Position numbers and translations under genes: made by a program | Notes under the pieces: generated by a model | Database searches by the model: none | Seen by the model: only the letters and a program-made list of their open reading frames with translations | Told to the model about the DNA's origin: nothing | Source: Candidatus Wildermuthbacteria bacterium | Lineage (GTDB): Bacteria > Patescibacteriota > Minisyncoccia > Minisyncoccales > UBA10102 | Assembly: GCA_016186115.1 (NCBI GenBank) | Contig: JACPMK010000002.1 | Location: 274,323-338,322 of the forward strand | Reading direction: 5' to 3' | Length of the DNA: 64,000 bases | Part shown: positions 12,877 to 64,000 of the stretch, piece after piece | Layout of the letters: every line of letters starts with the position of its first letter | Position numbering within the stretch: the stretch's first letter is position 1

Positions 12877-12926
12877 AGTTTTGTAGTGTATAACTTTTTG
12901 TATTACTGTACGACTTTACGACATTC

Positions 12927-12954
12927 ATTATACACAAGTACAAAACTAAGTCAA
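12927..12954 (-). promoter_or_regulatory. near-consensus sigma70 promoter (TTGACT-16nt-TATAAT) inside the operon, upstream of cassette gene A
   Basis: Minus strand reads ...GCTGCCTC TTGACT TAGTTTTGTACTTGTG TATAAT GAATG...; about 50 nt upstream of the gene A ATG at 12876. It is preceded by a 6-bp hairpin (12957-12975) that spans the hsdM stop codon. Confidence 0.45.
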
Positions 12955-12966
12955 GAGGCAGCTTGG

Positions 12967-25420: not shown

Positions 25421-25457
25421 GAATGCTTTTTAATAAAGATTACGAAGCGGCGTCGAA

Positions 25458-25571
25458 GGTGCATGTTTGAGGAGACCCTTAGCAGCGCGACGGCGCGACC
25501 TGCCTGCCGGCAGGCAGGGAAAAGAGCAAATTTCTAGCAAGAAATTATGCGTGTCTCCGAAAACATGCACC
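25458..25571. other. compound palindromic structured element in the GH57-glgA intergenic region
   Basis: The outer inverted repeat ggtgcatgtttgaggagac (25458-25476) and gtctccgaaaacatgcacc (25553-25571) pairs at 17 of 19 positions. It encloses a perfect 20-nt palindrome cctgcctgccggcaggcagg (25499-25518), a 7-bp hairpin aatttct-agca-agaaatt (25529-25546) and a gcgcgac direct repeat. Confidence 0.5.
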
Positions 25572-25598
25572 AAGAAAGCCGATTCGCAACTAATCAAT

Positions 25599-26975: not shown

Positions 26976-28525
26976 GTGCACGCTCTTTGATAAAGTTCGA
27001 TATACCTTTTTGCAGAAGTATTCCATGAGAAGTCAGCTTTCATTGCTCTTCGAACCAATCTTTCCCATGTTTTTTTGTATTTATAGGTTTCCAACCCCCG
27101 TACAATCGCACCAAAAAACGCATAGGAATGGAATTCCTCAAAGGTAAACCCGGTGCCGGTATTTCTGATAGGGTCAAAGTTCTCTACGGTGTCAGCCAAT
27201 CCTCCGGTCTCGCGCACCACAGGAATTGCTCCGTAGCGCATTGCTTCCATTTGGGTAATGCCGCACGGCTCAAATTTGGATGGCATCAAGAATAAATCGC
27301 TTCCCGCAAAAACATGCCGGGCCAAGGTCACGTCGGACATCAAATGGGTCCCTACCCGATGAGGAAATTTTTTATTGAGTTCTTCAAAAAAAGTGCGGTA
27401 TTCCGGCTCCCCTCCGCCCACCACCACAAATTCAATCATATGTTCGGCAAGCAGAACTTCAAGAATCGGAAACAGCAGATCAATCCCCTTTTGCTCGTAC
27501 AATCTGCCAACCATACCCAAAACAGGAATATCTTCGCCCATATCAAGGTTAAATTCTTTTTGCAAATGGAGTTTATTCTCCACACGATCCTTGAGATTCC
27601 TTATGGTAAAGTTCTTGACAAGAGATGGATCGGTCGCCGGGTTCAATTCCTTGTGGTCCAGACCATTCAAAATGCCGAATACTTTTGTGCGCACTTCCTG
27701 CAGCAGATCCTCCAAGCCCTCGCCATATTCTTTGGTAAGAATTTCTTTGGCATAGGTTTCAGATACCGTATTCACAAGGTCAGAATACAAAATACCCCGC
27801 TTCACAAAATTCTGCTTTAAAAGACGCTCTGCGAAAAAAGAGGCGATGGGCGATCTTCCGTCGTCTGCGTCAAGTTCAGAAACAAAGCGATGATCAAATA
27901 CTCCTTGATGATAGAGATTATGAATCGAAAAAACAGTTTTGATGCCGCCCAGAACAGGGTCATTACTATAGCTTGTTTTCAAATAATTCGGGAGGGCACC
28001 GGTATGCCAATCCGCGCAATTAATCACGTCGGGCACCCAATCGGATTGCCGCAAAAATTCCAAGGCCCCGCGCGAAAGAAGCACAAAACGTATGGGGTCA
28101 TCAGAATAGCCGTAGACATTGGAGCGCTTCTCGTAATACTCCATGTTTTCCAAGAAGTAAACCATCGGATCGGATTTCCGCTTTGCGTACTGCTTAACAT
28201 TGCAAACGAGCGATTCCTTTCCTTCGGCTGGGTCATCCGTAGGAACTTGTAATCCCTCGAGCAACATTTTCAAACGATATTTCTTCTCGTCGATCTGCCC
28301 GTATTTGGGCATAAAAATCCGAACGTCAAGCCCCTCCTTTTTCAGAGCTCTTGTCAATGAAAAAATGGCCATTCCAAGGCCTCCAACTGACGCATAGGGA
28401 TATGCTTCCGAAACAACGAACAGTACCTTCAACTGCTTATGGGAAGAATTCCCCTTTTTCTGGTTATTATTTGCCATAAAAAAAGCTGCACTCCAAGGCC
28501 ATTCACTATAGCACGAAGAGCTCAA
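26969..28525 (-). CDS. second GT5 glycogen-synthase-like alpha-glucan synthase
   Basis: SVGGLGMAIFSLTRAL and CADWHTGA motifs plus a GT-B C-terminal domain; only distantly related to the first glgA. Confidence 0.75.
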   Translation of the reverse strand: MSSSCYSEWPWSAAFFMANNNQKKGNSSHKQLKVLFVVSEAYPYASVGGLGMAIFSLTRALKKEGLDVRIFMPKYGQIDEKKYRLKMLLEGLQVPTDDPAEGKESLVCNVKQYAKRKSDPMVYFLENMEYYEKRSNVYGYSDDPIRFVLLSRGALEFLRQSDWVPDVINCADWHTGALPNYLKTSYSNDPVLGGIKTVFSIHNLYHQGVFDHRFVSELDADDGRSPIASFFAERLLKQNFVKRGILYSDLVNTVSETYAKEILTKEYGEGLEDLLQEVRTKVFGILNGLDHKELNPATDPSLVKNFTIRNLKDRVENKLHLQKEFNLDMGEDIPVLGMVGRLYEQKGIDLLFPILEVLLAEHMIEFVVVGGGEPEYRTFFEELNKKFPHRVGTHLMSDVTLARHVFAGSDLFLMPSKFEPCGITQMEAMRYGAIPVVRETGGLADTVENFDPIRNTGTGFTFEEFHSYAFFGAIVRGLETYKYKKTWERLVRRAMKADFSWNTSAKRYIELYQRACTL

Positions 28526-39335: not shown

Positions 39336-41333
39336 GTGAATACCGATCAAAAGCAAAAATCCTTTCGGCTTCCTTCGATTTCCCAGTGGAAACATTTTTT
39401 CTCCATTCTTTCGAAAAAAGAAAAGGTGTTGCTTTTGATACTCGCCTTGGCATGGATTGGATCTTCGGTTTTCCTTGTCCGGCAATTTTATCTTCAGCAA
39501 ACCCAAATCGCGCCAGCAAAGGGAGGGGAAATCGTGGAAGGCATGGTCGGATTCCCCCGTTCTCCCAATCAGATCGTGGCCGATGACAGTGATGTAGACA
39601 GAGATCTTCTCCAACTTCTCTATGCGGGTTTGCTTTCCTACGACGAAGAAAGTATTCTTGCTCCAGATTTGCTTGAAAGTTATCAAGTGCAGGGAGAAAA
39701 TAAACTGATTGAACTTGTACTCAAAGATAATCTCCGATGGAGCGATGGCAAACCAATTACTGCAGATGACGTCATCTTTACTATCGAAGCGATTCAAGAT
39801 CCCCAAAATAAAAGTCCTCTTCGGAGAAACTGGCTGGGCGTTACCGTAAAAAAAATTTCTGATCTTCGCATTCAACTGGAATTGAAAGAAAGCTATATTC
39901 CTTTTTTGGAGCGTCTCACCTTAAAACCGATCCCTAAACATATTTGGGAAGGGAGCACGCCCGAAAGCTTCTATCGACCCAGCAATGCGAATTTAAAACC
40001 CGTGGGGAGCGGGCCGTATGTGGTCACCAAAATCACACAGGAAAAAGAAAACGGGGCAATCCGCGAATTACAGCTTGAACCAAATCCTTATTACCATAGC
40101 AATGCTCCTTTTATCCCTGTAGTGAAGGCAAAATTCTATGCAAGTCAGGACGAGCTTACAAAAGCAGCAGAACAAGGACAGATTACAAGCTTTGCAATGG
40201 ATCCTTTTGAAAAGAATGCGCAAGCGAACTCCTCCCGGTTTGCCAGCCATATCTACTCTTTGCCGCGCTACTTTGCAATATTCTTCAACTTGGATGCGCC
40301 TGCCGGGCAGGATGTCATAAAAAATAAAACAATTCGAAAAGCGCTTGCGCTCGCTCTCGATCGAAATAAAATTGCAGCAGACATCTTCGGATCGAACGGA
40401 AAAATCGTCGTATCGCCCCTTTTATCCGATCTCTTCCAGCTAACCCAGCCAGAAAATAATCCTGAACCCGACTTCGAGAAAGCACTGGAACTGCTGGGTA
40501 ATTCTGGCTATGGAAAAAAAGATGGGAAAATTGTACAATTAAACTCTCCCAAGCTTTTTCAAGGAGATCTCAAAGAGGGATCGAAAGGAACAGCAGTAGA
40601 AATGCTTCAGGAATGCCTTGCAAAGGACAAAGAGATTTATCCCGATGGTACCGTGTCAGGATCATTTGGCGCGCTCACAAAAGAGGCGGTCATGCGCTTT
40701 CAGCAAAAATACGCCAATGATATTCTCAAGCCATCCGGACTTTCCAAGGGAAACGGAGTAGTAGGGCCTGCCACAAGAGCAAAGCTGAATGAAATTTGTT
40801 TCGGAAATAATGCCTATCCCGTCCTCCAGATCTTGCTCACGATACCCGATAACCCCACCTTCCAAGCGGTAGCCCAGAATATCAAAAATCAATGGGAAAC
40901 ATTTGGCATTACAGTAGAAATTCAATCGTATTCACTCAAAGATATCACCACAACTGTTATTCCCAAAAGGGCATACCAAACACTTCTTTTCGGCGAGATA
41001 TTGAATATTCTTCCGGATCCCCTGCCTTTTTGGCATTCTTCCCAAAAAGATTACCCGGGGTTTAATCTTTCTGCATATCAAAATAAAGAAGCAGATGCCC
41101 TGCTTGAACAAGCCAGAAAAGAAAGTGATCCGTCAAAAAGGAAAGAGAAATTCGTAAAGCTTCAAACCATGCTTCTCGAAGATCTCCCTGCGATTACTCT
41201 GTATGACACGAATTATATCTATGCTACCCCCAAAGAGCTGCAAGGAATCAAAGAAAGCATCATCGCAGAACCATCGCAACGTTTTACTGGAATTGCAAAT
41301 TGGTACATGCGCACTGCAAGACAGTGGAAGTAA
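39336..41333 (+). CDS. membrane-anchored ABC-type solute-binding protein (family 5, peptide/nickel type) with inserted peptidoglycan-binding domain; orphan
   Basis: N-terminal TM anchor and SBP5 architecture. The inserted segment LKEGSKGTAVEMLQECLAKDKEIYPDGTVSGSFGALTKEAVMRFQQKYANDIL resembles a PG_binding_1 domain. No permease or ATPase genes are adjacent. Confidence 0.8.
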   Translation: MNTDQKQKSFRLPSISQWKHFFSILSKKEKVLLLILALAWIGSSVFLVRQFYLQQTQIAPAKGGEIVEGMVGFPRSPNQIVADDSDVDRDLLQLLYAGLLSYDEESILAPDLLESYQVQGENKLIELVLKDNLRWSDGKPITADDVIFTIEAIQDPQNKSPLRRNWLGVTVKKISDLRIQLELKESYIPFLERLTLKPIPKHIWEGSTPESFYRPSNANLKPVGSGPYVVTKITQEKENGAIRELQLEPNPYYHSNAPFIPVVKAKFYASQDELTKAAEQGQITSFAMDPFEKNAQANSSRFASHIYSLPRYFAIFFNLDAPAGQDVIKNKTIRKALALALDRNKIAADIFGSNGKIVVSPLLSDLFQLTQPENNPEPDFEKALELLGNSGYGKKDGKIVQLNSPKLFQGDLKEGSKGTAVEMLQECLAKDKEIYPDGTVSGSFGALTKEAVMRFQQKYANDILKPSGLSKGNGVVGPATRAKLNEICFGNNAYPVLQILLTIPDNPTFQAVAQNIKNQWETFGITVEIQSYSLKDITTTVIPKRAYQTLLFGEILNILPDPLPFWHSSQKDYPGFNLSAYQNKEADALLEQARKESDPSKRKEKFVKLQTMLLEDLPAITLYDTNYIYATPKELQGIKESIIAEPSQRFTGIANWYMRTARQWK

Positions 41334-50183: not shown

Positions 50184-53100
50184 CTACTTTTCTTTGGGAG
50201 CAGATAAAAAGTAATCTTTATCAAACCCGGTTCCCGCAGGAATAAGCTTTCCAAGAATGACATTTTCTTTGAGGCCTTTCAATTTATCGTCTCTTGCCTC
50301 CAAAGCAGCGCGTATGAGCACGCGAGAGGTCTCTTGGAAAGAAGCCGCCGAAAGGAAGCTATCGGTTGTAAGGGCAACCTTTGAAATCCCAAGCAGCATT
50401 TGGCTCGCGACAGGCAACTCTTTGTCAAGCTTCTTCAAACGCGCAACCTCTTCCAGATAAGTGGAGCGTTCGATAACCTCGCCTTCGGTAAACCGGCTTT
50501 CGCCTCTTTCTTTCACGCGCAAACGGGAAAACATTTGCCGCGTAATAATTTCAATGTGTTTGTCATGAATAGGAGCCCCCTGCATGGAATAAATTCGCTG
50601 CACTTCTTTCACTACTATTCTCTGCGTTTCATCTTTTCCCACAACCTTGTACAATTCCTTAAGATCGATATTCCCCTCGCACAATTGCTGCCCCTTGGAT
50701 ACCCGATCTCCGGCTTTCACCCAAATCGCTCTTTTGGGAGGAACATCATATTCTATAATTTGCTCTTTCGCTTCCTGTTTCTTTTCTTTGCTCACCTTTC
50801 TTTTGCTTTCTTTTGCAGTCGCAGTACCGGGATTGGACTGAGAAGGCACGTTATCAGCAAGAATCTTAATGTTGCCTTCTGGGCTCACGCCTTGCACAAC
50901 TCCATCCACTGTTGCAATAACTGCTTTCCCGCCCGGGATTCTTCCTTCAAAAATTTCTTCTACGCGAGGAAGACCTTGCGTAATATCGCCTCCGCCGGCC
51001 ACTCCGCCGGTGTGGAATGTCCTCATGGTAAGCTGTGTTCCGGGCTCACCAATGGATTGTGCTGCGATAATTCCTACCGCGGTTCCCAATTTCACAGGGG
51101 TATTCGAACCCAATTCCCATCCGTAGCATTGCTGGCATACTCCCCGGCCGCTCTTGCACGTTAAAGGCGAACGTATACGAATAGAATCCACTTCGGCATC
51201 TCCGTTGATCTTCTGAACTGCATCCCAATCAATCACTTCTCCCTTCCGCATATAATCCTTCACATCTTCCGCTGCTACTCTACCCATAATCCGAAGGGCT
51301 AGGTTCTGGCCGATTTCTTCCCCGTCTTTTTTGCGGATACTAATTCCTTTGGTATCCTTGCAATTTTCTTCTGTAATAAAGATATCGTGGGCAACATCAA
51401 TAAGCCGGCGCGTAAGGTATCCCGCGGTAGAAGTTCGCAGAGCAGTGTCCGCTGTTCCCTTTCTCGCGCCATGGGTAGAAATAAAGTACTCAAGCACGTT
51501 GAATCCTTCCTTAAAGGAGCTCAACACAGGCAGCTCGATAATGCGTCCTGCGGGATTGATTACGAGACCCTTCATTCCCGACATCTGGACTGCCTGTCCC
51601 CAGCCGCCGCGAGAACCAGAATCAATCATGCTGTAAACCGATCCTTGAGGAGAAAGGGTTTGAGGAACAAGTTTTTCCATCATTGACTTTACTCGAGACC
51701 ACACCGCGATCACCTTCGCACTGCGCTCTTCTCTCGAGAGAAGCCCGTGACGCCAATGCGAATCAATAACTTCAATTTCTTTTTCTGCTTCCCCAAGAAG
51801 TTTTGCTTTCTCTGGAGGAACTACCAGATCATCCATACCCCATGTAGTTCCGGATTGAGTCGCGTATTCAAAACCAAGTTCCTTTATTTTATCAAGAATT
51901 TGTTGGGCTTCCTTGCTTGGGTATCTCCGGATAATGTCTGCTGCAATCCGCTCCATTTTCTTTGCATTCACCTGTTCATTGATAAAGGGATACCCTATGG
52001 GCAAAGAATCGTTAAAGATCATTCTTCCAACTGTTGTCTCAAGAATTTGTTCCCGGATCTGTACCCTGATGGGTTCTTGCAGGGCAACGACTCCTTGCGA
52101 ATGCGCGAGTAATGCTTCGTCAGCAGAACTCAATACTCTCATTGGTTCCGGCGAAGATTTCTTGCCCATGCCGGTAAGATAATAGCAACCCAACACCATG
52201 TCTTGGCGGGGGCTGATCACTGGAGTTCCAGTTGCTGGTTTCAAAAGATTCGTATTGGAAAGCATCAATTCTCGCGCTTCTGTTTGCGCCTCTTCCGAAA
52301 GAGGGACGTGCACTGCCATTTGGTCGCCATCAAAGTCGGCATTAAATGCAAGACATGCGAGAGGATGCAATTGAATTGCTTCTCCTTCGATTAATATGGG
52401 GAAGAACGCCTGTATTCCCAAACGATGAAGCGTGGGAGCGCGGTTCAAAAGCACGGTTTTATTTTGCGCTACTTCTTCCAAGATTGCCCATACTTCATCG
52501 GTCTGCTGTTCGATCAGCCGTGTTGCGCCGCGCACGTTGTAGGCAAGTTCTTTTTCAAGAATGCGCTGGATCACAAAGGGCTTCAATAATTCCAATGCCA
52601 TCTGCTTTGGCAAGCCGCATTGCGAGAGTTTTAATTTTGGCCCCACCACGATGACTGAACGCCCAGAATAGTCCACGCGCTTTCCCAACAGATTCTGGCG
52701 AAATCTGCCCTGCTTTCCCTTGAGCATATCAGCCAACGATTTCAGGAGGCGTTTGCCGCCAGTAGTTGCTTGAGTCATGGTCCCTTTGCGCATACTATTA
52801 TCAATCAGCGCATCCACTGCCTCCTGAAGCATGCGCTTTTCGTTGCGCACAATGACGTCGGGAGCTCCCAGCTCGATTAAGTACTTCAGACGGTTATTTC
52901 TGTTGATGACTCTACGGTACAAATCGTTCAGATCGGATGAGGCGTACCGTCCTCCGTCAAGCTGCACCATTGGTCGCAAATCCGGAGGCAATACCGGAAG
53001 CACGCTCAAGAGCATCCACTCCGGGCGAACTCCGCCCTCTTTCATGCCGCGGAATAATCGCAAACGGAACAAAATTTTCTTTTTGGCCTGGGGAGTTGCG

Positions 53101-53807
53101 TCAACAAGTTGACGCTCCAACTCCTCAATCGTTTTTGCAATATTTACCTGTTCAAAAATCTTCCGAAGGGTCTCCGCTCCCGTCCCCGCCTCAAACACAT
53201 GGCCATATTTCAAAGAAAGATTCTGGTATTCGATTTCCGAAAGAATACGCAAAGGCCGAAGCAAACTAAGTTGCTCTATCTCTTCATCTTTTGCTTTCTT
53301 GAATATCTGCTTCTCTTCTTCTGTTTTCTCTTTGACTTTTCTCCGAAATTCCTCCTCCACATCGTTGATTGCCTGTTTTTTCGCATCCTCATCAACTTTG
53401 ATAGTAATATAGGAAGCAAAATAAATAATCCGCTCCAGCGATTGAGCAGGAAGATCGAGAATGGCGCCCATGCGCGAAGGCACTCCCCTCAAAAACCAGA
53501 TGTGAGAACAGGGAGCCGCAAGTTTGATATGACCCATACGTTCTCTTCGCACCGCAGAACGCGTAACCTCTACGCCGCAGCGATCGCAAATAACGCCTTT
53601 GTAGCGAATTTTCCGGTATTTCCCGCAATAGCATTCGTAATCTTTTTCGGGACCAAAAATTCGCTCATCAAACAAACCATCTTTTTCCGCTCTTTGGGTG
53701 CGGTAGTTGATGGTTTCTGGCTTGATTACCTCTCCATAGGACCACGAAAGAATGTCATCGGGAGAAGCAAGCTTGATACGAATTGCCTCGAGGTCAACAA
53801 CTCTCAT
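50184..53807 (-). CDS. rpoC: DNA-directed RNA polymerase subunit beta prime
   Basis: Zinc-binding CYCGKY...[14 protein letters not shown] catalytic motif, bridge helix and trigger loop regions. Confidence 0.97.
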
Positions 53808-53824: not shown

Positions 53825-56800
53825 TTATCTTTTTTCTGCCTTCTGTAGTTTTTCTTTTACTTCCACATGCAAAGCCAACGATCTCAATTCATTAAGCAAA
53901 AGATTAAACGATGCGGGGATATTCGGAGTTTGAATTGGCTGTCTGCGCAAAATGGATTCATAGGTTGCGGCGCGCCCCGTGACATCATCGGATTTAATCG
54001 TAAGCATTTCCTGAAGCGTATACGCAGAACCATATCCTTCTAATGCCCACACTTCCATTTCTCCGAATCTCTGCCCTCCAAATTGCGCCTTGCCCCCCAA
54101 GGGCTGCTGGGTAATCAGGGAGTAAGGCCCAATAGAACGCATATGGATTTTATCTTCAACCATATGGATCAACTTCATCATATAGATATACCCCACGGTA
54201 ATTTTTTGCGGAAAAGAACTCCCGTCCCTTCCGTCGTACAAGGCAACTTTTCCATTCTCGGGAAGACCGGCGCTGCGAAGCTCCTGTTTAATGTCTTCTT
54301 CATTGGCTCCTGCCAACCCCGGAGTAACAGCAATATATCCAAGTTCATGTGCAGCCCACCCGAGATGGGTCTCCAAAATCTGGCCAATATTCATACGAGA
54401 AGCAACTCCCAGAGGATTGAGAATAATATCAACGGGAGTGCCGTCTTCCATATAGGGCATTTCTGCTTCCGGAAGAACCATGGAAATAACTCCTTTATTC
54501 CCATGACGGCCTGCCAGCTTATCTCCGGGCTGAATCCTGCGAAGTTCTGCTACTTCCACATGAATTCGCTTAATAATTCCGGGCTCCAACTTATGCCCTT
54601 CTTCTCTGGAAAATATTTTCACATTCACGACTCTTCCCCTCTTCCCATGGGGCATGAGAAGAGAACTATCTTTAATATCCCGCGCCTTTTCGCCAAAAAT
54701 TGCCCGCAAGAGCCGCTCTTCCGGAGTTAACTCGGCTTCACCCTTAGGAGAAATCTTGCCAACCAAAATATCATTCGGCCCAACTTCGGCTCCAATACGC
54801 ACAATTCCCTCTTCATCAAGGTCTTTCAATTTTTCTTCCCCCACATTCGGAATGTCTCCAGTTGTCTGCTCGGGGCCGAGTTTTGTTTCGCGCACATCGC
54901 AACTGAAATTTTCAATATGAATAGACGTAAAAATATCATCCCTCACAATCCGTTCGGAAAGGATAATCGCATCCTCATAATTTCCTCCCCGCCACGGCAT
55001 AAACGCAACCAAGAGATTTGTTCCCAAAGCCAACCTCCCATGATCGATAGCGCCGCCATCTGCAATGATATCTCCCTTTTTGACCCGTTCACCCTTCTTC
55101 ACAATAGGCCGCTGATGAAATGCAGTGTATTGATTGGTCCGGACAAATGTCCGTAAATCATAGGAATGGGAAGAACTTTTCGATCTTCCATCTTCTGAAC
55201 GAATGACAATGTGACGCGCATCCACTTCCTGAACCACGCCTCCTTCTTGCGCAACCAGCGCAAGTCCAGAATCCTTTGCCACCCGGTCCTCCAAGCCCGT
55301 ACCAACAAGAGGGGCTTGAGCCCGCAGCAATGGCACGGCCTGCCGCTGCATATTAGAACCCATCAGAGCGCGGTTTGCATCGTCATTGCGCAAAAAAGGA
55401 ATAAGGGAGGTTGCAACCGAGATCGACTGCTCCGAGGCAACATCAATGTAATCGACTCTGTCTCGCGTAGCTACCCCCGGCTCCCCATGGATTCTTGCCT
55501 CCACTTTTTCATCTATAATTCGTCCCTGCTCATCAAGACGAACCCCAGCATGAGCAATGACATGCTGCTCCTCTTCATATGCATTGAGATAATGCAATTC
55601 ACTCGTCGCTTTTCCCTGCTCTACCTTGTAATAAGGAGTTTCCAAAAATCCGTATTCATTAATTCTTGCAAAAGTTGCCAAATGCCCGACCAATCCAATA
55701 TTAGGACCTTCCGGGGTCTGGATGGGACAAATCCTGCCATAGTGGCTTGGCTGCACATCCCGGACTTCAAACCCTGCTCTTTCCCGGGTCAAACCGCCGG
55801 GACCTGTCGCAGAAACACGACGCTTATGCTCTAATTCGGCAAGCGGATTCTCATTCTCCATAAACTGGGTGAGCTGCGAAGAAGTGAAAAATTCTTTCAC
55901 CACTGCCATGACTGGCCTTGGATTAATCAGCTGGACCGGAGTAATAGTAGCCGGATCAAGCGTGGACATCCTGTCTTTGATAATGCGCTCCATACGGGTG
56001 AACCCAACTCTCATCCTATTCTGGAGAAACTCTGCAAAGGTTCTTACTCTGCGGTTTCCCAAGTGATCGATCTGATCGGGTTGCGCTTCCGGCGCATTAT
56101 TCAACCTGATAATTTCGCGCAACACCTCGATCACATCTTCAATGGTAAGCACCCGATCTTTGATCGTTATCTCGCCTTTGCTCTTTTGCAACGCAGGAAG
56201 TCGCTGCATTGTTTTCCAACGCCCAACACGCGACAAATCGTATCGTTCAAAATTGAAAAACATATTCCAGATTAATTCCTTTGCGGTATCCGGAGTGACA
56301 TAATCACCAGGCCGCAATCTGCGGTATACCTCCACGAGTCCTTCTTCCTGTGTGTTTGCGGAATCCCGCTTAAGCGTTTCATCAATATAATGGACCTCTC
56401 CCATATCGACATCCTTAAAAAGCTTCCGGATAAGCTCGTCTTCCCGAGTTCTTTGCGCCTCCACGCTCTCCCCCTCCTTTGCCTCGGTCGCTCCAGCACC
56501 GAATGCGCGCAATAGCGTTGTCGCAGAAACCTTCCGCTTCCGGTCGATACGCACCACGATCGCTCCGGATGGCTCGGTTTCAAATTCAAGCCACGCGCCG
56601 CGGTTCGGAATAATTTTTGCCCCAAACAATTTACGCCCCTGCGAGACATTCGCAGTAAAAAATGCGCCCGGAGAACGAATGAGCTGCGAAATTGCCACAC
56701 GCTCCACTCCATTCACTACAAAAGTTCCCCGTTCGGTCATCAGCGGAAAATCGCAGAGAAAAATCTCCTGTTCTTTGACCTCTTTCGTCCGAAGATTTAC

Positions 56801-57079
56801 CAAACGAACCTTCACGCGCAATGACGCCTCAAGCGAATCATCGTTATTTTTTGCATCGAGATCAGATCTATAGTTTGGTTCTCCTAATTTGAAATCGACA
56901 AACCAAAGTTCAAACTCTTTTTTGGTATAGTCGCGTACTGGAGATATTTCCTGAAGAAGTTCTTTCAAATGTGTATCCCAAAATACCCGCCAGCTATTAT
57001 GTTGAACTTCCAACAGGTAAGGGGGATCCAGGTGGACCCTGGATTTTGCAAAATTTTTAATTGAAAGAGAGGTTGCCAT
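53825..57079 (-). CDS. rpoB: DNA-directed RNA polymerase subunit beta
   Basis: Conserved rpoB regions throughout (e.g. GDKLAGRHGNKGV, QQPLGGKAQFGGQRFGEME). Confidence 0.97.
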   Translation of the reverse strand: MATSLSIKNFAKSRVHLDPPYLLEVQHNSWRVFWDTHLKELLQEISPVRDYTKKEFELWFVDFKLGEPNYRSDLDAKNNDDSLEASLRVKVRLVNLRTKEVKEQEIFLCDFPLMTERGTFVVNGVERVAISQLIRSPGAFFTANVSQGRKLFGAKIIPNRGAWLEFETEPSGAIVVRIDRKRKVSATTLLRAFGAGATEAKEGESVEAQRTREDELIRKLFKDVDMGEVHYIDETLKRDSANTQEEGLVEVYRRLRPGDYVTPDTAKELIWNMFFNFERYDLSRVGRWKTMQRLPALQKSKGEITIKDRVLTIEDVIEVLREIIRLNNAPEAQPDQIDHLGNRRVRTFAEFLQNRMRVGFTRMERIIKDRMSTLDPATITPVQLINPRPVMAVVKEFFTSSQLTQFMENENPLAELEHKRRVSATGPGGLTRERAGFEVRDVQPSHYGRICPIQTPEGPNIGLVGHLATFARINEYGFLETPYYKVEQGKATSELHYLNAYEEEQHVIAHAGVRLDEQGRIIDEKVEARIHGEPGVATRDRVDYIDVASEQSISVATSLIPFLRNDDANRALMGSNMQRQAVPLLRAQAPLVGTGLEDRVAKDSGLALVAQEGGVVQEVDARHIVIRSEDGRSKSSSHSYDLRTFVRTNQYTAFHQRPIVKKGERVKKGDIIADGGAIDHGRLALGTNLLVAFMPWRGGNYEDAIILSERIVRDDIFTSIHIENFSCDVRETKLGPEQTTGDIPNVGEEKLKDLDEEGIVRIGAEVGPNDILVGKISPKGEAELTPEERLLRAIFGEKARDIKDSSLLMPHGKRGRVVNVKIFSREEGHKLEPGIIKRIHVEVAELRRIQPGDKLAGRHGNKGVISMVLPEAEMPYMEDGTPVDIILNPLGVASRMNIGQILETHLGWAAHELGYIAVTPGLAGANEEDIKQELRSAGLPENGKVALYDGRDGSSFPQKITVGYIYMMKLIHMVEDKIHMRSIGPYSLITQQPLGGKAQFGGQRFGEMEVWALEGYGSAYTLQEMLTIKSDDVTGRAATYESILRRQPIQTPNIPASFNLLLNELRSLALHVEVKEKLQKAEKR

Positions 57080-57247
57080 AGCAAAACGTAAAAAATCCCC
57101 AATAATGCAGAGGGGAATAATTTGAGAAATTATTAGTAAGATTGAAAAAGCGTAATGGAAACGCTCAAGGAAGGTCTATGATTAAAAATATGCGTCTTTA
57201 GTGTAGTTTATTACCCAAAAATTGTCAAGGGCGTCAACCCCTCTCTC

Positions 57248-58264
57248 CTATTCTTGCGAAAAAAGAGACGATTCTCCTCTCTTGCGGGCAATCACCATCA
57301 CGAGCATAAGAAGCATAAGGATAGCCCCGATAATTCCGCCAATGAAGAGGCCTCTTCCGCCGAAAATGCCTTTCTCTTCTTTTCCCTGCTGCGTCTGCAA
57401 TGCTCCCGTGGTAAACACCTGATCCTCTGACTGCAGTTCTTTATCTGCGGCATTTGTGCCCTTTACCCGGAAGTGATACTCTGTTTGAGGAGAAAGATTC
57501 TCGAGCGTAATTTGATGCTCCATGGCAAGCTCTCCCCGCAACACAATAAATGCATACTCTTTGTTTGGTCCATATTCTACTACTGAATTTGCGCCTTCGC
57601 TCGTAACCCAAGCAATACGAGCACTCTCACCGGTGATTGTGTCAACTCTTACATCGGATAGAGAAAATTGCGGCTGCGATGTTGGGAAAGAAGAAGGTGC
57701 TGGTTGAGACGATGTTGTTGGGGTGGGAGAAACCGAAGAACTCGGCCTTGGCGTTGGACTGGAGGAAGCACTACTCTTCGCTTTCAAAACATATGCTCCT
57801 TTGCCAGATGCAACAAGATTGAGGATATTCGCATTTCCTGCGTCAGTAAGCACTGCAGAATCAGAAGCAAAGGTAAGGGTAGCAGCTCCGGAAGAACTTT
57901 TCACTCGGAATAACACTGAAGCAATCTGCTGGATTCCCGAAAAGCCCGGAGTTGGTTTGCCGCCAGAAATTTCCACTCTCCCCTGCCCGTATTTTTTTTC
58001 GGCAAAAAGAGTCATTGCTGAATTAGCAGTATTAATTTCTCTCGCCTCAAGCTTATCCTCGGGATACGTAAAGTATGCTGCAACGGCATTCACATCTTCC
58101 CCTTGAGTATTTACCATGACATTCACCCAAAAACTGTCGTCTTGGGCAAAGCTTCCCGTGGCAGGAGAAAAAAAGAGCGTCCCGTTCTGCGCAGACGCAG
58201 AAGAACCAAAAAGGAATAACGCGCCACTCACGAGCACAAATAAAACAAGTGTAAATTTTATCAT
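57248..58264 (-). CDS. cell-anchored cohesin-domain protein with FN3 domain and C-terminal TM (anchoring scaffoldin-like)
   Basis: Signal peptide and a cohesin-like beta-sandwich (FWVNVMVNTQGEDVNAVAAYFTYPEDKLEA...ATLTFASDSAVLTDAGNANIL). An S/T/P-rich linker and FN3-like domain (DVRVDTITGESARIAWVTSEGANSVVEYG...TEYHFRVKG) follow, then a C-terminal hydrophobic anchor plus a basic tail. Confidence 0.6.
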   Translation of the reverse strand: MIKFTLVLFVLVSGALFLFGSSASAQNGTLFFSPATGSFAQDDSFWVNVMVNTQGEDVNAVAAYFTYPEDKLEAREINTANSAMTLFAEKKYGQGRVEISGGKPTPGFSGIQQIASVLFRVKSSSGAATLTFASDSAVLTDAGNANILNLVASGKGAYVLKAKSSASSSPTPRPSSSVSPTPTTSSQPAPSSFPTSQPQFSLSDVRVDTITGESARIAWVTSEGANSVVEYGPNKEYAFIVLRGELAMEHQITLENLSPQTEYHFRVKGTNAADKELQSEDQVFTTGALQTQQGKEEKGIFGGRGLFIGGIIGAILMLLMLVMVIARKRGESSLFSQE

Positions 58265-58308
58265 AAAGATTGTGCTTGTATTATATCACAGCAACGCATC
58301 GACACAAA

Positions 58309-60030
58309 TCATCTCGTCCAATTCGACAACAAAATACTGAAATCAAAAATTGTGATACTGCTATCGCCGTTGAGATCGTATGACGGAGCTGTCTTCTTCC
58401 AGTTTGAAAGCAAAATGCTTAAGTCAATGATATTTACTTTCCCATCTTTGTTATAATCTCCTTTTAAGAACTTGGGCGAGGAGCCGGGCGAAGATGAAGG
58501 AGAACTGGAAGGGGCAGGGGCAGGCGGATTTTGCGGCGCAGGAGGATTTGGTTGGGGCGTGGGAGCCGGAGCTGCCACTTGAAACGCAATAAGAAAATCT
58601 GAAGCACTGGTATTGCCCAACCCGTCTTGGCATTTCACGTAGTACGAATAGGAACTGCCGTTGGAAAGCCCGGAAATAGGAGTGGAATGCGTCGTTCTCC
58701 CGCCGGTCAAAGCAAATGCAGACATTGCGGCGTAATTCAAGCTTGGAATGGTTGCATATCTACAAGCGGCTAACTCATCACTAGTGAGCGAAAGTGTGAC
58801 TGAAGTTGTTCCCGCAGGAAGAGAGCCGCTTGGCTGACCATTCGCAGGGATAGGAGCAGTGGTATCGGGCGTTGAGATGTTCAGCGTTTTCCTCACTTCA
58901 GCAGTTGGAGCATTCCCTCTTGCTACGATAACCTTTGCGGTATAAGTTCCCGCCGCAGAATAATTGCAGGCATCAATCGCAATTTTCGGATTTTCTGAAC
59001 TATTCAAAAATTGAACTGCCCAATTGGAAGAAATATCTGTTCCCGCATCAGAACGATCGCAATAGAAGGTGTACGAAATGGAGCCGGTGGCAGAACCCCC
59101 CGCGTCAGCAATCAGATCAACGCCATTCAAGGGAGCGTTTCCCGACGCCGGGCTAAGATTCAAAGTAACGATCAGGGTAGAGGATACGCTAAACACAATA
59201 GAAAAATCATCGGGATTGGTATTGGGCGTGGAGGCGGCATCTTGGCATTTTACGTAGTAGGTGTAGGAATTACCGTCGGAAAGATTAGAAACTGAAGATG
59301 AATGACCTGTCCCGCCCGTGGTAGAGAATGCGGTCATGGCGCTATAGCTAGCGCCCGAAGTCGTTGCATATCTGCATGTGGCATTTTCATCAGTGGCAAG
59401 AGAAAGAGTGGTCGAGGTTGTACCCGCAGCCAATGTTCCCGAAGGAACGCCGCTTGATCTCACCGGAGGAGTAACATCAACAGTAGTAGTAAAACTCGCG
59501 CCAGTGGAACGAGCAACATTTAAAATATTGGAATCATCAACTTTCAACGCCAAAGAAGAAGGATCATACGTGATATTGGCTGTTCCCGCAGCAATAGCTT
59601 TGAAACTGATCTTGGCAACAAGTCCGCCGTTGCCGTTAAATCCAGAGGGATCAGAACCTTGGAATTTGACCTGCCCCGGCGCACTTACGTCTGCCTCCCA
59701 AACGCTCGTAAATACGCTCGAGGAATAATCGACGCTCAACGCAGAAAGACGAGTGCTGTCATAATTGAGATATATCTTCGCCGATGTTACTGATGCGGAT
59801 GCGCTGATACGCAATTCTCCATTGAATGTGGAGTTTACGGGAAAGCTGCCGCTTTCGGGAGACAAATATAAAACCGCCTCATTATTGCCGGGGACAACTT
59901 GAGCAAGGGAACCGGAGGGAAGATTAAATTGGAACATAGAAAGGGGGAGATTTTTCATCCCCCAAAATAATACCGCAGCAGTAGTGAGAATAAGTCCGAC
60001 AAGAAATCCCAAAAGAAACGACCGACTCAT
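58309..60030 (-). CDS. secreted protein with N-terminal cohesin-like domain, two Ig/FN3-like repeats, PT linker and C-terminal type I dockerin
   Basis: Cohesin-like N-terminus (AVLYLSPESGSFPVNSTFNGELRISASASVTSAKIYLNYDS...). Two ~100-aa repeats share PxxxxPSGxLxAGTTSxTLSLxTDExAxCRYAT. The dockerin has two Ca-binding repeats (DYNKDGKVNIIDLSILLSNW; DLNGDSSITIFDFSILLSNW). Confidence 0.6.
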   Translation of the reverse strand: MSRSFLLGFLVGLILTTAAVLFWGMKNLPLSMFQFNLPSGSLAQVVPGNNEAVLYLSPESGSFPVNSTFNGELRISASASVTSAKIYLNYDSTRLSALSVDYSSSVFTSVWEADVSAPGQVKFQGSDPSGFNGNGGLVAKISFKAIAAGTANITYDPSSLALKVDDSNILNVARSTGASFTTTVDVTPPVRSSGVPSGTLAAGTTSTTLSLATDENATCRYATTSGASYSAMTAFSTTGGTGHSSSVSNLSDGNSYTYYVKCQDAASTPNTNPDDFSIVFSVSSTLIVTLNLSPASGNAPLNGVDLIADAGGSATGSISYTFYCDRSDAGTDISSNWAVQFLNSSENPKIAIDACNYSAAGTYTAKVIVARGNAPTAEVRKTLNISTPDTTAPIPANGQPSGSLPAGTTSVTLSLTSDELAACRYATIPSLNYAAMSAFALTGGRTTHSTPISGLSNGSSYSYYVKCQDGLGNTSASDFLIAFQVAAPAPTPQPNPPAPQNPPAPAPSSSPSSSPGSSPKFLKGDYNKDGKVNIIDLSILLSNWKKTAPSYDLNGDSSITIFDFSILLSNWTR

Positions 60031-60156
60031 GCAATATAAGCTAGAATTAATGAGTCACGAAACGCCTTCGACGCCGTTTCATGACTAACAAAATAATCTC
60101 TTAATATAGTTTAATGCCTACCGAATCGAAACACAAGAACATTTTCCCCATTTGAT

Positions 60157-60741
60157 TTATGGGGTAAGAACATAACAATATCGGTTCGGATCATTCACGA
60201 TGCCAGCATCATTTCCGGACGTGCAGCATTGGGCTTGATCTGAAACTTCGTAGATGCTTTGAGATTTTTCAAGACCTGCGCAAAGCCAAACCGTTCCTGC
60301 CGGGCAAACAGGACTGCAATCTGGAGCAATATCTCTTTTCGTATACCCGTATGCCCTGCAATTATCATCTGCGCTGCCGAAATTGCGCGTCTCCCGGGGA
60401 ATGGCGTTGAGCAAATTCTCCGTTTGGAGCATAGAAAGAAAGTCCTGATCGGATGTGCTATCAGCATTTTGAGTATTGGTATTCCCCGAATCCCAAGTCC
60501 AAGGCAGCGTACCGCAAGAATCATCTATATCTGCCACATCGGGATAATCGCCGTGTTCTTGATAATAAAGTTCAAGGCCGCTACGGATAGTTGCCAAATC
60601 GCTTATTCTTCTTGCATCGCGCACTTTTGCCCTTTCATCAGAGAGTAACTGATACGCCGTATACAGTGCGAGAAATCCAATAATGACTACAACAATTAAT
60701 AATTCGAAAAGCGTAAACCCATCCTCTTTTCGTGTTTTCAT
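60157..60741 (-). CDS. type IV pilin-like protein (prepilin N-terminal cleavage/methylation motif)
   Basis: MKTRKEDGFTLFELLIVVVIIGFLALYTAY: GFTLFE prepilin peptidase site plus a hydrophobic helix; C-terminal domain with paired Cys. Confidence 0.7.
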   Translation of the reverse strand: MKTRKEDGFTLFELLIVVVIIGFLALYTAYQLLSDERAKVRDARRISDLATIRSGLELYYQEHGDYPDVADIDDSCGTLPWTWDSGNTNTQNADSTSDQDFLSMLQTENLLNAIPRETRNFGSADDNCRAYGYTKRDIAPDCSPVCPAGTVWLCAGLEKSQSIYEVSDQAQCCTSGNDAGIVNDPNRYCYVLTP

Positions 60742-60767
60742 AACTTTATACTTCGCAAGAGCCTACC

Positions 60768-63700
60768 TTAGCGGGACCAGTTCGCCATCATCTTATTGGC
60801 GTCGTAGAGATCAATTTTGTTCAGGGAAACATTGCTGGGACCGGAATTAATATCTGCTTCGGCAAGATCCTGAGCATTAGCACTCCCCCATTTAGAAAGG
60901 AGCCGGGACACATCGTAGATATCTATTTTTCCATCGCGCTTGTACTCGGCAAATTGGGTTTGCCCTGCATTATACCAGATATCTCCTAGTTTTGTTACGA
61001 GAATTTGCTTTGCATACATTACCTTTTCCTGATCAGCGAGTCGTTCCACATCAAGTTCATAGAGGCCGAGAAGCAGTGAAGAAAGATCGCTTGGAGCTAT
61101 AGAGGCCTCAACTCTCGTTGCGCTCACGGGAGTAAGCACGAACGATTTCTTTTCTACGCCTGCCTGAACCAAATGCGCAGCAAAACTGTCATTCGTAGTA
61201 AAATCAGTGCCATCAATACGAATGGTCTCCGATACACCCGCAAAGAGGTAGAGCTTGTTCAGCGAAGCAAGGGTAAATGATCGCGGCAACACCTCGATAC
61301 CATTAACCAACGCATTATTGACCGAAGCCGTAAATCCGATATTGAGCTGGCCATCACCGATCGAAACATTGACGGATTTTGCAATCGCAATATTGCGGCC
61401 GCCCGCTTCCCTAAATATATCAATATTGGTAATTGGCACCCCCTCCACGTTCGCATTGAATACCCGCTGCCCGGCAGCGGTAATACCTGTGTAGGTCTCT
61501 GCAAGATGAAGCCAAACCGTATAATTCCCGTTGGGAACGTTCAATGCATACCCCGTCATGCCATAGCGTTCGGTTTGGAATACTCTATCGTTGACACTAT
61601 TAGCAATGGCAATTGCTCCGCGATCTGCTGTCCATCCGCCGATAAACCCGCTGTCTGCCACCCATTTATTTCCTGACGTATCCACAAAGTCAGCGTTGCC
61701 GCCTGCTTCAATACGAACGACAGATGAAGGAATCGGCGTGGGTGCAGGAGATGTTGACGGCGTAGGCGTAGGCGTGGGAGTTGGTGTCGAGGTTGGTGTT
61801 GGAGTCGGCGTGGGAGTTGGTGTCGGCGTGGGAGTTGGGGTAGGCGTCGGGGTAGGTGTTGGCGTTGGCAAGGGAGCGCCGGTGCTATCAAACACCACTG
61901 CCACTGCCGAATATGCTGGAATTGTATAATTTACAATGGAGTTGTTTCCCGATGGAATAATCGTGCTTACTGGTTTTGCAGGAATGCCTGCCAATATATT
62001 CTTGAACGCAGTAACATTGCTGATTTGCACATCGGGAATGGTCACGCCGTTAATTCGTGTCTGATTTCCGGTGAATGAAGTTGGGTTGGCAAGAGAAGTG
62101 GGGTCTGTGCTAGTCATCTCATAGGCAACTCCGCTCGTTGCCTTAAATCCATTCAGGGTAATCGCGCTTGTTGCGGCTGCGGCTTTCAAATTCACCAGCA
62201 TCAGTTTTAATTTTCCGGGATCTTTGGCATCCGTACTTGCCCAGACCACCACATTCTGTTCAGGATCGCTGGTTGAACTCTGTACCATCATATCGCCAAA
62301 GTATTGAGCGTAGAGATACATGGTGCTGAAAATCGGCCGCACATCAAGGGCGGTGTCTCCGTTCGTTCCCAGCAAACCCCTTGAATTGCCCAGTCCTGTT
62401 CCTCCGTCTTCCAAACTGTAGTACGTGATGATATCAACGCCATTGTAGGCATGGCGGGCAAGCACATCAGCCAGCCAGATTGCAGCGAGATGATTGGAAT
62501 TAATCGGATTTTCATGCTGCACGGCGTGAGGCCCGAACTCGGTAATCGCCATCTCCAAGGTTGGATCTGTCGCACGATAGGGGTTTATTACTACTTGTTT
62601 CATTGATTCTGCAATACTGCGGCGATAACGGGTGCGATCCAGCCGCGCTTTGTTAATGCTGTCTCCCGGACAGCCAAAGCCATCCTGACAAGAGCCGACA
62701 GAGGTATTGTAATTCAACAACGCTTCAACTGAACCTCCCTGATAGGCAAAGGATCCCGTATTGGTGGTCCACTCGGTAAGCTGATACCAGTGCCATACCA
62801 ACACATCCAAGGCATTGCCGACTTTATTGCGCAACGCATCATACCAGCTGGTTTTGTCGGGCATGGTTGGCACCGGCCCCATCACTTTAATGGTGGGGTC
62901 TACTGCTTTCAGGGCGCTTTGGTATGCCGCAAAACGATTGGCATATTCGGTTGCATTTACACAGCCATCAAGATCGAGCTCATTTCCGATTTCCCAATAT
63001 GTAAAGTTGTATCCCTTTTCAACATTGGTGTATTTCAAAAGATCGGCCCACATTTTTGGATTGTTGTCGCATACATTCACCTGCACCATCATTTCAGCGC
63101 CCACTTGTTTTGCAACGTCAGCAGCAGCGTCAACCATTGGGGGCTTATACGCATGCGTATAGCTATAGGCGGCTCCTGTGCTTGGGTCAGTATAAGTCCA
63201 TGCTCCATCATCTGGCGCAGTATTGCTGCGGCTCCAGCCAGTCCGATTTGCCCATAGTCCTCCTGCGAAACGGATAATACCGGGTTTAAGAAGTTTTGTT
63301 ACCTCAACAATAGCGTTATGTTTTCCAACAGGACAACATTGGTATCCGGGACGATCCCATAATGCCTCATACAGCCAGTTCCACGTATTTGTGGCAACGC
63401 CGCGAATCATGCTCTTGAAAGGATACACGCTTGTGGTTGCGTTGACCGTAAGAGAGTAGGAACCAGATGGCAAAGGCGTCGGAGTCGGTGTTGGGGTAGG
63501 CGTCGGTGTTGGAGTGGGCGTCGGGGTTGGGGTTGGGGTTGGCGCTGGCGTGCCTCCTAGCGCAACGGGATTCTTCATCCAATCAAGAAGCTGGGAATGG
63601 GTAGCCAAACGAACATCAGGGAATTGGCCGTTGAGCAGCCAATTAAGAAAATCATTCATTGCCTGTTGTTTTTCCAATATACTTGCCGTGGGCACTCCCC

Positions 63701-64000
63701 CATTTGCCAAAGTATTTACCGGCCCCCATTCTTGTGAATGCGTGCAGATTGAGAATGGCGCGCGGTTGCCATTATACAACGTAAGGAAAGTATTTTTCAG
63801 GTCCTGAATATATTGCGCTCCTGTCTTGCCGGTATCAAACCAGTCCTTGTCGCAGTACGCGCTTTGTCCTGTTGCGTAGATTTGCGGAACTTCCCAGATG
63901 CCGGGAGTAGTGCCAAAATTGCGGGTATCCCATGTTGCCCCTCCCGGCCAGCCATTGTCGAGCGTTCCTGTCCACCATGCCGGAAGATTGGTAGAATGGC
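60768..64000 (-). CDS. large secreted dockerin-bearing glycoside hydrolase (clan GH-A-like catalytic domain, Pro-Thr linkers, malectin-like CBM); 5' end beyond window
   Basis: The track start at 63779 is a TTG inside a frame that stays open to position 64000, so the gene is partial. It carries a YWEIGNELD acid/base-type motif and two PT-repeat linkers. A malectin-like domain ([29 protein letters not shown]...[11 protein letters not shown]) and a C-terminal dockerin ([16 protein letters not shown] ... [14 protein letters not shown]) follow. Confidence 0.75.
61745..61875 (-). repeat. coding tandem repeat (Pro-Thr linker, PTPTPT...) inside the large GH gene
   Basis: Forward strand shows reiterated ggcgt(a/g)gg(a/t)gt(t/c)gg units encoding (PT)n; a second shorter PT run lies at about 63473-63548. 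Confidence 0.5.

Follow-up and report, generated by a model that had tools for sequence, protein, structure and literature searches.

A Cohesin-Dockerin Operon at the Edge of the Window

A 64,000-nucleotide stretch of DNA from an uncultivated, ultra-small Candidatus Wildermuthbacteria bacterium (hereafter, the window) ends in the downstream part of what looks like a five-gene operon, E-D-C-B-A, of ~10.3 kb. With a probability of roughly 0.6, this operon encodes a non-cellulosomal cohesin-dockerin system that holds enzymes at the cell surface. Its predicted parts are three cohesin proteins (A, B and E), of which A and E end in a transmembrane (TM) helix and B in a canonical dockerin, and a giant secreted multi-domain enzyme (D) that ends in an atypical dockerin. 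The remaining gene, C, encodes a pilin. An earlier note, made from the letters of the window, had read positions 57248-64000 as a cellulosome-like module of four successive minus-strand genes. These four open reading frames (ORFs), A, B, C and D, are indeed present in a row, and nearly all the domains named for them were found.

Gene A (57248-58264) encodes a 338-amino-acid (aa) anchoring cohesin protein, listed by NCBI as a "hypothetical protein" (MBI2644285). Gene B (58309-60030) encodes an adaptor-like protein of 573 aa, and gene C (60157-60741) a type IV pilin or pseudopilin of 194 aa, named "type II secretion system protein" by NCBI. The ORF of gene D (60768-64000) has 1076 codons and is open at the window edge; ~2.9 kb more of the gene lie outside. 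A Logan contig that carries B (L001) is identical to the window over 7419 nt and extends ~6 kb further. Because this identical contig runs past the window, the full D protein (2053 aa, of which the window encodes the C-terminal 1076) and gene E could be seen. Gene E (L001:2494-3105, equivalent to window positions 66926-67537, ~2.9 kb past the right edge) encodes a third cohesin protein of 203 aa, again a "hypothetical protein" for NCBI. All these genes, and all the modules located below, are on the minus strand.

A single operon is proposed because a strong terminator with a 12-bp stem (L001:2332-2362) parts E from the gene upstream, the stop of E and the start of D overlap by 4 nt, the other intergenic gaps are short (26 nt for D-C, 126 nt for C-B and 44 nt for B-A), and a terminator-like hairpin (57227-57242, minus strand) lies directly 3' of the A stop codon. 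A promoter-like TTGACA-17-TACACT (57228-57200, minus strand) ahead of rpoB overlaps this hairpin. Both elements are consensus matches, a class whose total counts in our scans were no higher than the shuffled background; alone, such scans are weak evidence. Downstream of A follow rpoB (53825-57079) and then rpoC (50184-53807). The extent of four genes given earlier was thus too small: the third cohesin anchor, E, and a further 977 aa of D, with M23-like and CE4-like sequence, lie upstream.

The Cohesin Proteins

Three classes of cohesin protein are shown by the operon: a small cohesin with a TM helix (E), a cohesin with a canonical dockerin (B) and a cohesin with an FN3 domain and a TM helix (A). 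Protein A consists of a signal peptide, the cohesin module (57770-58192, ~aa 25-165), a Ser/Pro/Thr linker, the FN3 domain (57401-57658, aa 203-288) and a C-terminal TM helix followed by RKR. The FN3 domain exceeds the Pfam cut-offs of both fn3 (28.9 bits, cut-off 25) and Pur_ac_phosph_N and has FN3 matches in the PDB. The putative anchor (57287-57352; GLFIGGIIGAILMLLMLVMVIA, then RKRGE) was read from the sequence and is also present in A-type orthologs. Protein E has a signal peptide, a cohesin (26.3 bits; the Pfam cut-off for Cohesin, PF00963, is 24.1 bits) and a C-terminal TM helix. As read from the sequences, the C-termini of A and E thus both combine a TM helix with basic residues, and both N-termini are signal peptides. 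The cohesin module of B (59491-59883, ~aa 50-180) scores 28.8 bits, also above the cut-off.

The cohesin of A is a paralog of those of B and E (BLASTP, 4e-8 and 2e-10, respectively). Cohesins fold as nine-stranded beta-sandwiches (jelly rolls); of the three in the operon, this one was modelled. Its AlphaFold2 model, built from a 71-sequence alignment, reached a predicted local distance difference test (pLDDT) of 97, and in a Foldseek search with the model, PDB matches 1-36 were cohesins without exception (best match 6kgf_C, E 1e-9, TM-score 0.76). These structural matches include the cohesins of Clostridium acetobutylicum CipA, Pseudobacteroides cellulosolvens ScaB and C. cellulolyticum, as well as the Archaeoglobus fulgidus cohesin 2xdh and the C. 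perfringens cohesins 2vo8, 2jh2 and 2w1n. Searches of PDB sequences were less sensitive: single-sequence phmmer runs with A and B returned FN3 matches and weak dockerin matches only, while with a profile of the cohesin family, cohesins came first, weakly (E ~0.008). The Pfam Cohesin profile itself matched 37 of 61 family members at E<=0.01.

Judged from sequence and predicted fold, the domains of A, B and E are true cohesins of a divergent branch. The other possibility raised in the earlier note, that of generic immunoglobulin (Ig)-like sandwiches, fails: the fold match of A is specific, and B and E lie above the Pfam cut-off. The description of A as a cohesin-FN3 protein with a C-terminal membrane anchor stands for the FN3 domain, the TM helix and the cohesin fold, but its Pfam Cohesin score (18.9 bits, E 0.0018) is below the cut-off.

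This cohesin family is large. An exhaustive profile search gave 8390 clusters at 50% identity for E<=1e-3 and 2043 for E<=1e-10; a word-indexed homolog search with a cohesin profile gave just 7 matches. Among the best 145 members, ~58 end in a TM helix and ~30 in a canonical dockerin of the form DGKVNIFDLSILLSNW...DLNGD..I.IFDLSILLSNW, and a few are multi-cohesin proteins. A metagenomic protein of the same cohesin family, P0135 (2276 aa), is scaffoldin-like, with nine cohesin stretches and a C-terminal canonical dockerin.

Two Classes of Dockerin

A type I dockerin is built of two ~22-residue tandem segments, each made of a 12-residue EF-hand-like loop (D/N at positions 1, 3, 5, 9 and 12) and a helix. 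Such a module (58312-58470) closes protein B, which begins with a hydrophobic segment (signal peptide or signal anchor), followed by the B-type cohesin, two DUF7800/FN3-like domains with a ~100-residue segment without assignment between them, and a Pro-rich linker. The two calcium-loop/helix repeats, DYNKDGKVNIIDLSILLSNW and DLNGDSSITIFDFSILLSNW, contain the canonical loops DYNKDGKVNIID and DLNGDSSITIFD; as read from the sequence, both have D/N at loop positions 1, 3, 5 and 12. Pfam Dockerin_1 (PF00404, cut-off 22.9 bits) scores 30.3 bits on the whole protein and 35.8 bits on the isolated module. The claim that B carries both a cohesin and a type I dockerin is therefore borne out, as both Pfam cut-offs are passed. 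Orthologs of B share the architecture, for example P0006, a "dockerin type I domain-containing protein" in NCBI. In two metagenomic B-type proteins, P0179 and P0183, the canonical dockerin is replaced by the atypical module of D.

This atypical module (60771-61280), here called XDoc, consists of an Ig-like (IPT/TIG-like) X module and a dockerin placed by its homology to that of B. The two dockerins align (BLASTP, 4e-9), and local hidden Markov models (HMMs) of the two classes match each other reciprocally at ~1e-6. The AlphaFold2 model of the XDoc (170 residues) shows a beta-sandwich and three helices (pLDDT 92.9, predicted TM-score (pTM) 0.85). A beta-sandwich of ~95 residues always precedes the dockerin in this family. 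In the alignment of 26 sequences, the pattern DINxGPxNxSxGKIDxYDANxxMANW is conserved; it covers loop 2, which in D has 18 residues, with a 6-residue insertion kept across the family. Loop 1 of D is non-canonical, as position 1 is E and position 3 is K. Among the 25 family members scanned, eight match Pfam Dockerin_1, some of them with a canonical loop 1 (GDLNKDGKVNIFD), and three match TIG. A word-indexed homolog search with the XDoc profile gave 22 matches, mainly fragments.

Homology and predicted secondary structure thus support a dockerin fold at the C-terminus of D. The dockerin announced for D is a homolog of that of B, yet it is not a canonical type I dockerin: it lacks a Pfam match, even at E<=10 on the isolated tail, and has an X module before it. 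The calcium-binding residues are canonical in B but partly non-canonical in D (loop 1, positions 1 and 3; insertion in loop 2).

The Giant Enzyme D

The N-terminal part of D comprises a signal peptide, a 177-aa domain without a Pfam match, a Pro-Thr linker, an M23-like domain, a beta-rich domain and an FN3 domain. These are followed by a CE4-like domain, a clan GH-A-like domain, a malectin domain and the XDoc, with Pro-Thr linkers before each of the first three. The four linkers (D residues 207-255, 794-806, 1130-1152 and 1688-1728; three of them inside the window, where 61722-61850 and 63429-63500 are linker positions) are encoded by highly repetitive DNA. A chimeric assembly of the giant gene through this repetitive DNA was considered and rejected: two independent assemblies are identical over 7419 nt, and an ortholog in another genome (L008; 2160 aa, 57% identical) is collinear over 2155 aligned columns, with the motifs kept. 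At the place of the malectin domain of D, this ortholog has CBM6 and CHB_HEX_C.

Clan GH-A enzymes have a (beta/alpha)8 domain in which the acid/base Glu belongs to an N-E motif behind strand 4 and the nucleophile Glu stands behind strand 7. The clan GH-A-like domain of D, together with a C-terminal beta-sandwich, occupies 61875-63428. It matches Pfam Glyco_hydro_79n at 25-27 bits (cut-off 23.1), with partial coverage (profile positions 147-247 of 318), and has weaker GH44, GH39 and arabinofuranosidase (ASD1_dom) matches around the motif YWEIGNELD. This motif, which contains the putative acid/base, aligns with the NE motif of GH51, GH79 and GH44 structures in the PDB (E 7e-5 to 2e-3). The putative nucleophile, in AITEFG, was placed by eye. 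The malectin carbohydrate-binding domain (61314-61721) is clear, with 83.6 bits in Pfam.

The CE4-like polysaccharide deacetylase domain, of which the C-terminal part is at 63549-63998 and the remainder beyond the window, matches the chitin deacetylase 5z34 over its whole length (E 1e-6). CE4 enzymes have a NodB-homology domain with an Asp/His/His metal site; the GSDDN and HELGNH of D resemble, without equalling, the canonical motifs TFDD and HxxxH. In the M23-like domain, HGGYD and HTH, which fit the HxxxD and HxH zinc motifs of LytM-type M23 peptidases, are ~70 residues apart; the L008 ortholog has HGGYD and HAH. The portrayal of D as a dockerin-bearing glycoside hydrolase with a GH-A-like domain, a malectin domain and Pro-Thr linkers was right in outline but incomplete, as D is 2053 aa long and predicted to be multi-catalytic. 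Its domain set suggests N-acetylglucosamine (GlcNAc)-type or envelope glycopolymers, rather than cellulose, as the substrate.

Conservation across Patescibacteria

A one-genome-per-species scan with the A-type alignment gave nine loci; as L014 is the same contig as L003, these represent eight genomes besides that of the window. They come from Wildermuthbacteria, Paceibacterota, Parcubacteria, Portnoybacteria and other metagenome-assembled genomes (MAGs) of Patescibacteria. According to a scan with local HMMs, the E, B and A cohesin genes occur together in six of them (L003, L008, L009, L010, L011 and L015). The arrangement in L016 is a variant, in which a small additional gene encodes a dockerin alone, and in the truncated L012 and L013, B then A alone are visible. 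The order B then A is the same in every cassette. In a neighbour-joining tree of 46 cohesin cores, three clades match gene position and architecture, with A in the A-type and B in the B-type clade.

An XDoc enzyme is found beside the cassette in L003, L008 and L015, as in the window. For example, the order in L003, a groundwater MAG, is XDoc enzyme, E-type cohesin, B ortholog, A ortholog, rpoB and rpoC. The enzyme of this genome differs strongly from D and is composed of a metallophosphoesterase, BACON, a Pel9A-like beta-helix and malectin, with the same XDoc at its end. As in the window, rpoB-rpoC are directly downstream of the cassette in six of the eight genomes (L003, L008, L009, L011, L012 and L015); L010 and L016 differ, and L013 did not resolve this point. 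We offer no explanation for this fixed linkage of a surface cassette to the RNA polymerase genes.

When metagenomes were scanned with the XDoc alignment, 26 loci were obtained, with 23 XDoc genes whose flanks could be assessed. A cohesin gene, mostly of the small E type, lies within 400 nt of 14 of these 23. The cargo attached to the XDoc is varied and includes DUF4838, a CEMIP beta-helix with G8, Pel9A/DUF1565 beta-helices, F5/8 type C and Laminin_G_3 domains and, in L033, an M23-like match of 25.2 bits, below the Pfam cut-off. One dockerin class common to many polymer-active enzymes would be the organising principle of the cellulosome, applied to other substrates. On several contigs, two XDoc enzymes lie side by side or close together (L019, L033, L035, and L018 with L020), so that several cargo proteins per dockerin class may be present in some genomes. 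The tandem enzymes at L019:2236-7923, L033:476-10462 and L035:5156-14938 are large (900-1800 aa), with no cohesin gene in the flanks examined.

The conserved synteny across Patescibacteria argues that the genes work together.

Proposed Mechanism

In the surface-display system proposed here, E and A would be membrane proteins whose Ser/Pro/Thr stalks present the cohesins to the outside. D would be exported by Sec and captured through its XDoc. The likeliest receptor would be the cohesin of E, because of the 4-nt overlap of E and D here and the recurrent adjacency of XDoc and E-type genes elsewhere. The canonical dockerin of B would plug into the cohesin of A, as suggested by the invariant order B then A, which would leave the cohesin of B itself free as a second docking site. 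The tethered D would then degrade or modify GlcNAc-type or other envelope and extracellular glycopolymers close to the cell. These would come from a host cell or the environment, and their products would feed an organism of little biosynthetic capacity. Alternatively, docking may be serial, with B linking D to A or E in one linear chain. Because the dockerin classes are interchangeable on the adaptor (P0179 and P0183), a simple pairing rule is complicated; a rule against binding within the own polypeptide is uninformative on the pairing, since B-type cohesins occur with either dockerin class.

Several points weigh against this display system. Foldseek with the XDoc model gave Ig-like matches only and no dockerin match, because the X module dominates. 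Loop 1 of D is without canonical ligands at positions 1 and 3 and loop 2 is expanded, so the calcium dependence, and even the cohesin binding, of this dockerin are uncertain. The matches put D in no definite GH (CAZy) family, and its two other catalytic domains are under their Pfam cut-offs (M23, 17.3 bits against 28.7; Polysacc_deac_1, 14.8 against 23.1). The N-terminal segment of B could be an uncleaved anchor, which would give another geometry. Which cohesin takes which dockerin we infer solely from gene adjacency; yet nine of the 23 assessable XDoc genes have no adjacent cohesin, and a few loci break the pattern, with the XDoc directly followed by B in L018 and A followed by the XDoc in L023.

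A bolder version of the display system is conceivable, though we hold it to be doubtful: the cassette would be a lineage-wide surface organelle of CPR bacteria of the Paceibacteria/Parcubacteria type, a modular "exo-digestome" of interchangeable giant enzymes breaching or harvesting host envelope polymers, and a principal molecular basis of an episymbiotic, scavenging lifestyle. The XDoc, with its expanded loop 2, would then represent a new type of dockerin that recognises cohesins with a specificity of its own.

How the candidate phyla radiation (CPR)/Patescibacteria deal with their hosts and get their building blocks is an open central question. These bacteria account for a large part of bacterial diversity, their biosynthetic capacity is minimal, and few of their surface systems have been defined beyond type IV pili. 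A conserved, compact display system with swappable cargo would supply testable parts (three cohesins, two dockerins and defined enzymes) that are open to recombinant expression, with no need to grow the organism itself. The system is widespread, has gone unannotated and lends itself to experiments, and its binding is so far predicted. It would extend cohesin-dockerin biology by membrane-helix anchoring and a new dockerin variant, and the latter could serve as an orthogonal pair in designer enzyme assemblies.

Alternative Explanations

The cohesins, dockerins and lectin domains could instead attach the tiny cell to a host or a polysaccharide, with catalysis being secondary and the pilin contributing. 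Such an adhesion system has precedents: non-cellulosomal dockerins have been proposed as adhesins in host-dependent nanobacteria (PMC10066038) and in consortia of anaerobic methanotrophic archaea (ANME) (PMC5244752), and one essential protein of the epibiont Southlakia has a dockerin domain (PMC10633639). Lectin-type modules are also common in the XDoc cargo (malectin, CBM6, F5/8 type C and Laminin_G_3), and a pilin gene lies within this operon. However, the pilin is not conserved in the cassette, and the catalytic motifs of the cargo are intact in the 57%-identical ortholog. The presence of cohesin and dockerin partners in one operon of one genome fits self-assembly better than a foreign ligand. 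Adhesion as the leading function is thus judged unlikely, although the two functions are not exclusive, as a tethered enzyme with a carbohydrate-binding module would adhere too.

A housekeeping role in remodelling of the own wall, with an M23 endopeptidase, a CE4 peptidoglycan deacetylase and a glycosidase held at the cell's own membrane, would account for the fixed position of the cassette beside rpoBC, directly upstream of which it is located in seven genomes, including that of the window. The HxxxD and HxH motifs of the M23-like domain and the CE4-like domain of D fit this role, as do the M23-like match in the L033 enzyme (under the Pfam cut-off) and the envelope genes nearby (FtsW/RodA upstream in L003; a polytopic TPR membrane protein upstream here). 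It is made quite improbable by the wholesale exchange of cargo between related genomes (phosphoesterase with pectate-lyase-like beta-helix, DUF4838, CEMIP/G8), a variation that is expected of outward-facing functions and not of core wall maintenance. Malectin and CBM6, moreover, point to non-self glycans, and the M23 and CE4 matches of D are below the Pfam cut-offs. Slightly less probable still is that nothing assembles at all and that the genes encode independent surface proteins sharing common beta-sandwich and EF-hand-like modules. The cohesin of A and the dockerin of D do miss the Pfam cut-offs, the calcium loops of D are degenerate, and what cohesin-dockerin modules do outside cellulosomes is in general unproven (PMC5244752). 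Against this stand the cohesin-specific fold match of A (PDB matches 1-36), the scores of B above both Pfam cut-offs and the co-occurrence of three cohesin and two dockerin classes in a fixed order in many genomes. The thousands of family members in which an N-terminal cohesin is joined to a TM anchor or a dockerin (~58 and ~30, respectively, of the best 145) are equally at odds with unrelated modules.

Comparison with Known Systems

Examples of cellulosomal proteins are CipA and the anchoring proteins SdbA and OlpB of C. thermocellum and the adaptor system ScaA/ScaB/ScaE of Ruminococcus flavefaciens. The operon shares with cellulosomes the cohesin fold, the duplicated calcium-loop/helix dockerin and the adaptor with a cohesin and a dockerin (both in B), single-cohesin anchoring proteins, Pro/Thr linkers and a dockerin common to varied polymer-degrading enzymes. 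In contrast, the anchors here are C-terminal TM helices and not SLH domains or sortase signals, and one giant multi-catalytic enzyme is present rather than many single-catalytic ones. The host belongs to the CPR and has a reduced genome, and the cargo is M23-like, CE4-like, phosphoesterase and beta-helix.

A true cellulosome was rejected, as its defining features were looked for and not found. E, B and A carry one cohesin each, and there is no multi-cohesin scaffoldin at the locus; Pfam revealed no CBM3, GH5, GH9 or GH48 in the cluster proteins, nor was any SLH match or LPXTG motif found in them. The term "cellulosome-like" used earlier thus holds for the parts, but not for the scaffoldin, the CBM3, a recognised cellulase or the SLH or sortase anchor.

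The XDoc recalls the X-module-dockerin dyads of type II/III dockerins, known from C. thermocellum CipA (XDoc) and R. flavefaciens CttA or ScaB (XDoc). PDB entries 4iu2/4iu3 and 4wkz, which belong in this context, are among the Foldseek matches of the A model. As in these dyads, an Ig-like beta-sandwich lies directly before the dockerin, and the pair in D is predicted as one confident unit; the loops of R. flavefaciens type III dockerins are likewise atypical or have insertions. Unlike in the dyads, the X module of D is IPT/TIG-like, the XDoc is on the enzyme and not on a scaffoldin, and the loop 2 insertion, DINxGPxNxSxGK, is specific to the D family.

The existence of cohesin-dockerin modules outside cellulosomes has been known since Peer et al. 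2009 (FEMS Microbiol Lett 291:1, as cited in PMC10066038 and PMC5244752), and their function is still called unknown (PMC5244752). Like the operon, these modules (2xdh; those of the C. perfringens toxin complex, 2vo8, 2jh2 and 2w1n) are outside plant-wall degradation, often occur one per protein and are on hydrolases. They are, however, scattered single genes or pairs, whereas a fixed multi-gene cassette with membrane anchors is found superphylum-wide here.

Closer to the present host, an essential dockerin-domain protein, SEML1_0315, has been described for Southlakia epibionticum (PMC10633639), and giant dockerin-rich ORFs for Omnitrophota (PMC10066038; bioRxiv 10.1101/2023.11.21.568195). When compared by description, these organisms are also ultra-small and probably host-dependent, with dockerins on large extracellular proteins that have glycan-binding or -degrading domains, and a role at the host-cell surface has been proposed. 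The reports differ in that no matched cohesin partners or conserved operon accompany the dockerins. A full-text search on dockerins in CPR/Patescibacteria/Parcubacteria found no description of the E-B-A cassette; in the searchable literature, dockerins of Patescibacteria are mentioned just in passing, as for Southlakia (PMC10633639). The domain types themselves are already known. As far as the sequences indicate, what would be new here is their combination: a system anchored by TM helices, with three cohesin and two dockerin classes, a distinctive XDoc and swappable giant cargo, with a conserved place beside rpoBC in CPR bacteria of the Paceibacteria type.

The Pilin Gene

The identification of C as a type IV pilin was confirmed by its N-terminus, with a class III signal peptide, a hydrophobic helix and an N_methyl match of 27.3 bits (Pfam cut-off 21.2). 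The prepilin site is G/FTLFE, in the N-terminus MKTRKEDG/FTLFELLIVVVIIGF. Its membership of the display module, which had also been claimed, did not hold, as a pilin gene does not regularly accompany the cohesin-dockerin genes. Six of the eight other genomes (L003, L008, L009, L011, L015 and L016) lack it in their cassettes, as does the recovered part of L012; the L013 locus is truncated too far for a judgement. The pilin gene of L010 lies upstream of E and not inside the cassette, and its product shares just the N-terminal helix with C. No pilus assembly genes were identified by Pfam among the 20 largest other ORFs of the window. As it is not syntenic in other genomes, the pilin was rejected as a core component, and C is treated here as a passenger in the operon of this genome rather than as a part of the system.

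Other Genes in the Window and Upstream of the Operon

The local HMM scan of positions 1-57000 revealed no further cohesin or dockerin ORF. According to Pfam, the 20 largest other ORFs of the window comprise housekeeping genes, a type I restriction-modification system, glycogen-metabolism genes and a GH113 protein. This last one (2069-3829, minus strand; 586 aa) has a GH113 domain of 190 bits and, by the local HMMs, no dockerin, so that it would be a second extracytoplasmic-type glycosidase, unlinked to the cohesin system. The restriction-modification system (9390-16847, minus strand) consists of HsdS (9390-10526), HsdM (12967-14511) and HsdR (14508-16847), with small ORFs between S and M.

At 23990-28525 (minus strand), a GH57 gene with a C-terminal UVR motif lies between two GT5 starch/glycogen-synthase-like genes; the three resemble a compact cluster for alpha-glucan metabolism, within a reduced genome. 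Upstream of the operon, L001:9-2255 encodes a protein of 748 aa that has TPR repeats at its C-terminus and for which many membrane helices are predicted. This may be an envelope protein of the O-antigen-ligase or glycosyltransferase kind; the TPR part alone was identified. The gene at 39336-41333 (plus strand) encodes a family-5 solute-binding protein (SBP_bac_5) in which residues 418-483 look like an inserted peptidoglycan-binding domain (PG_binding_1), an unusual combination.

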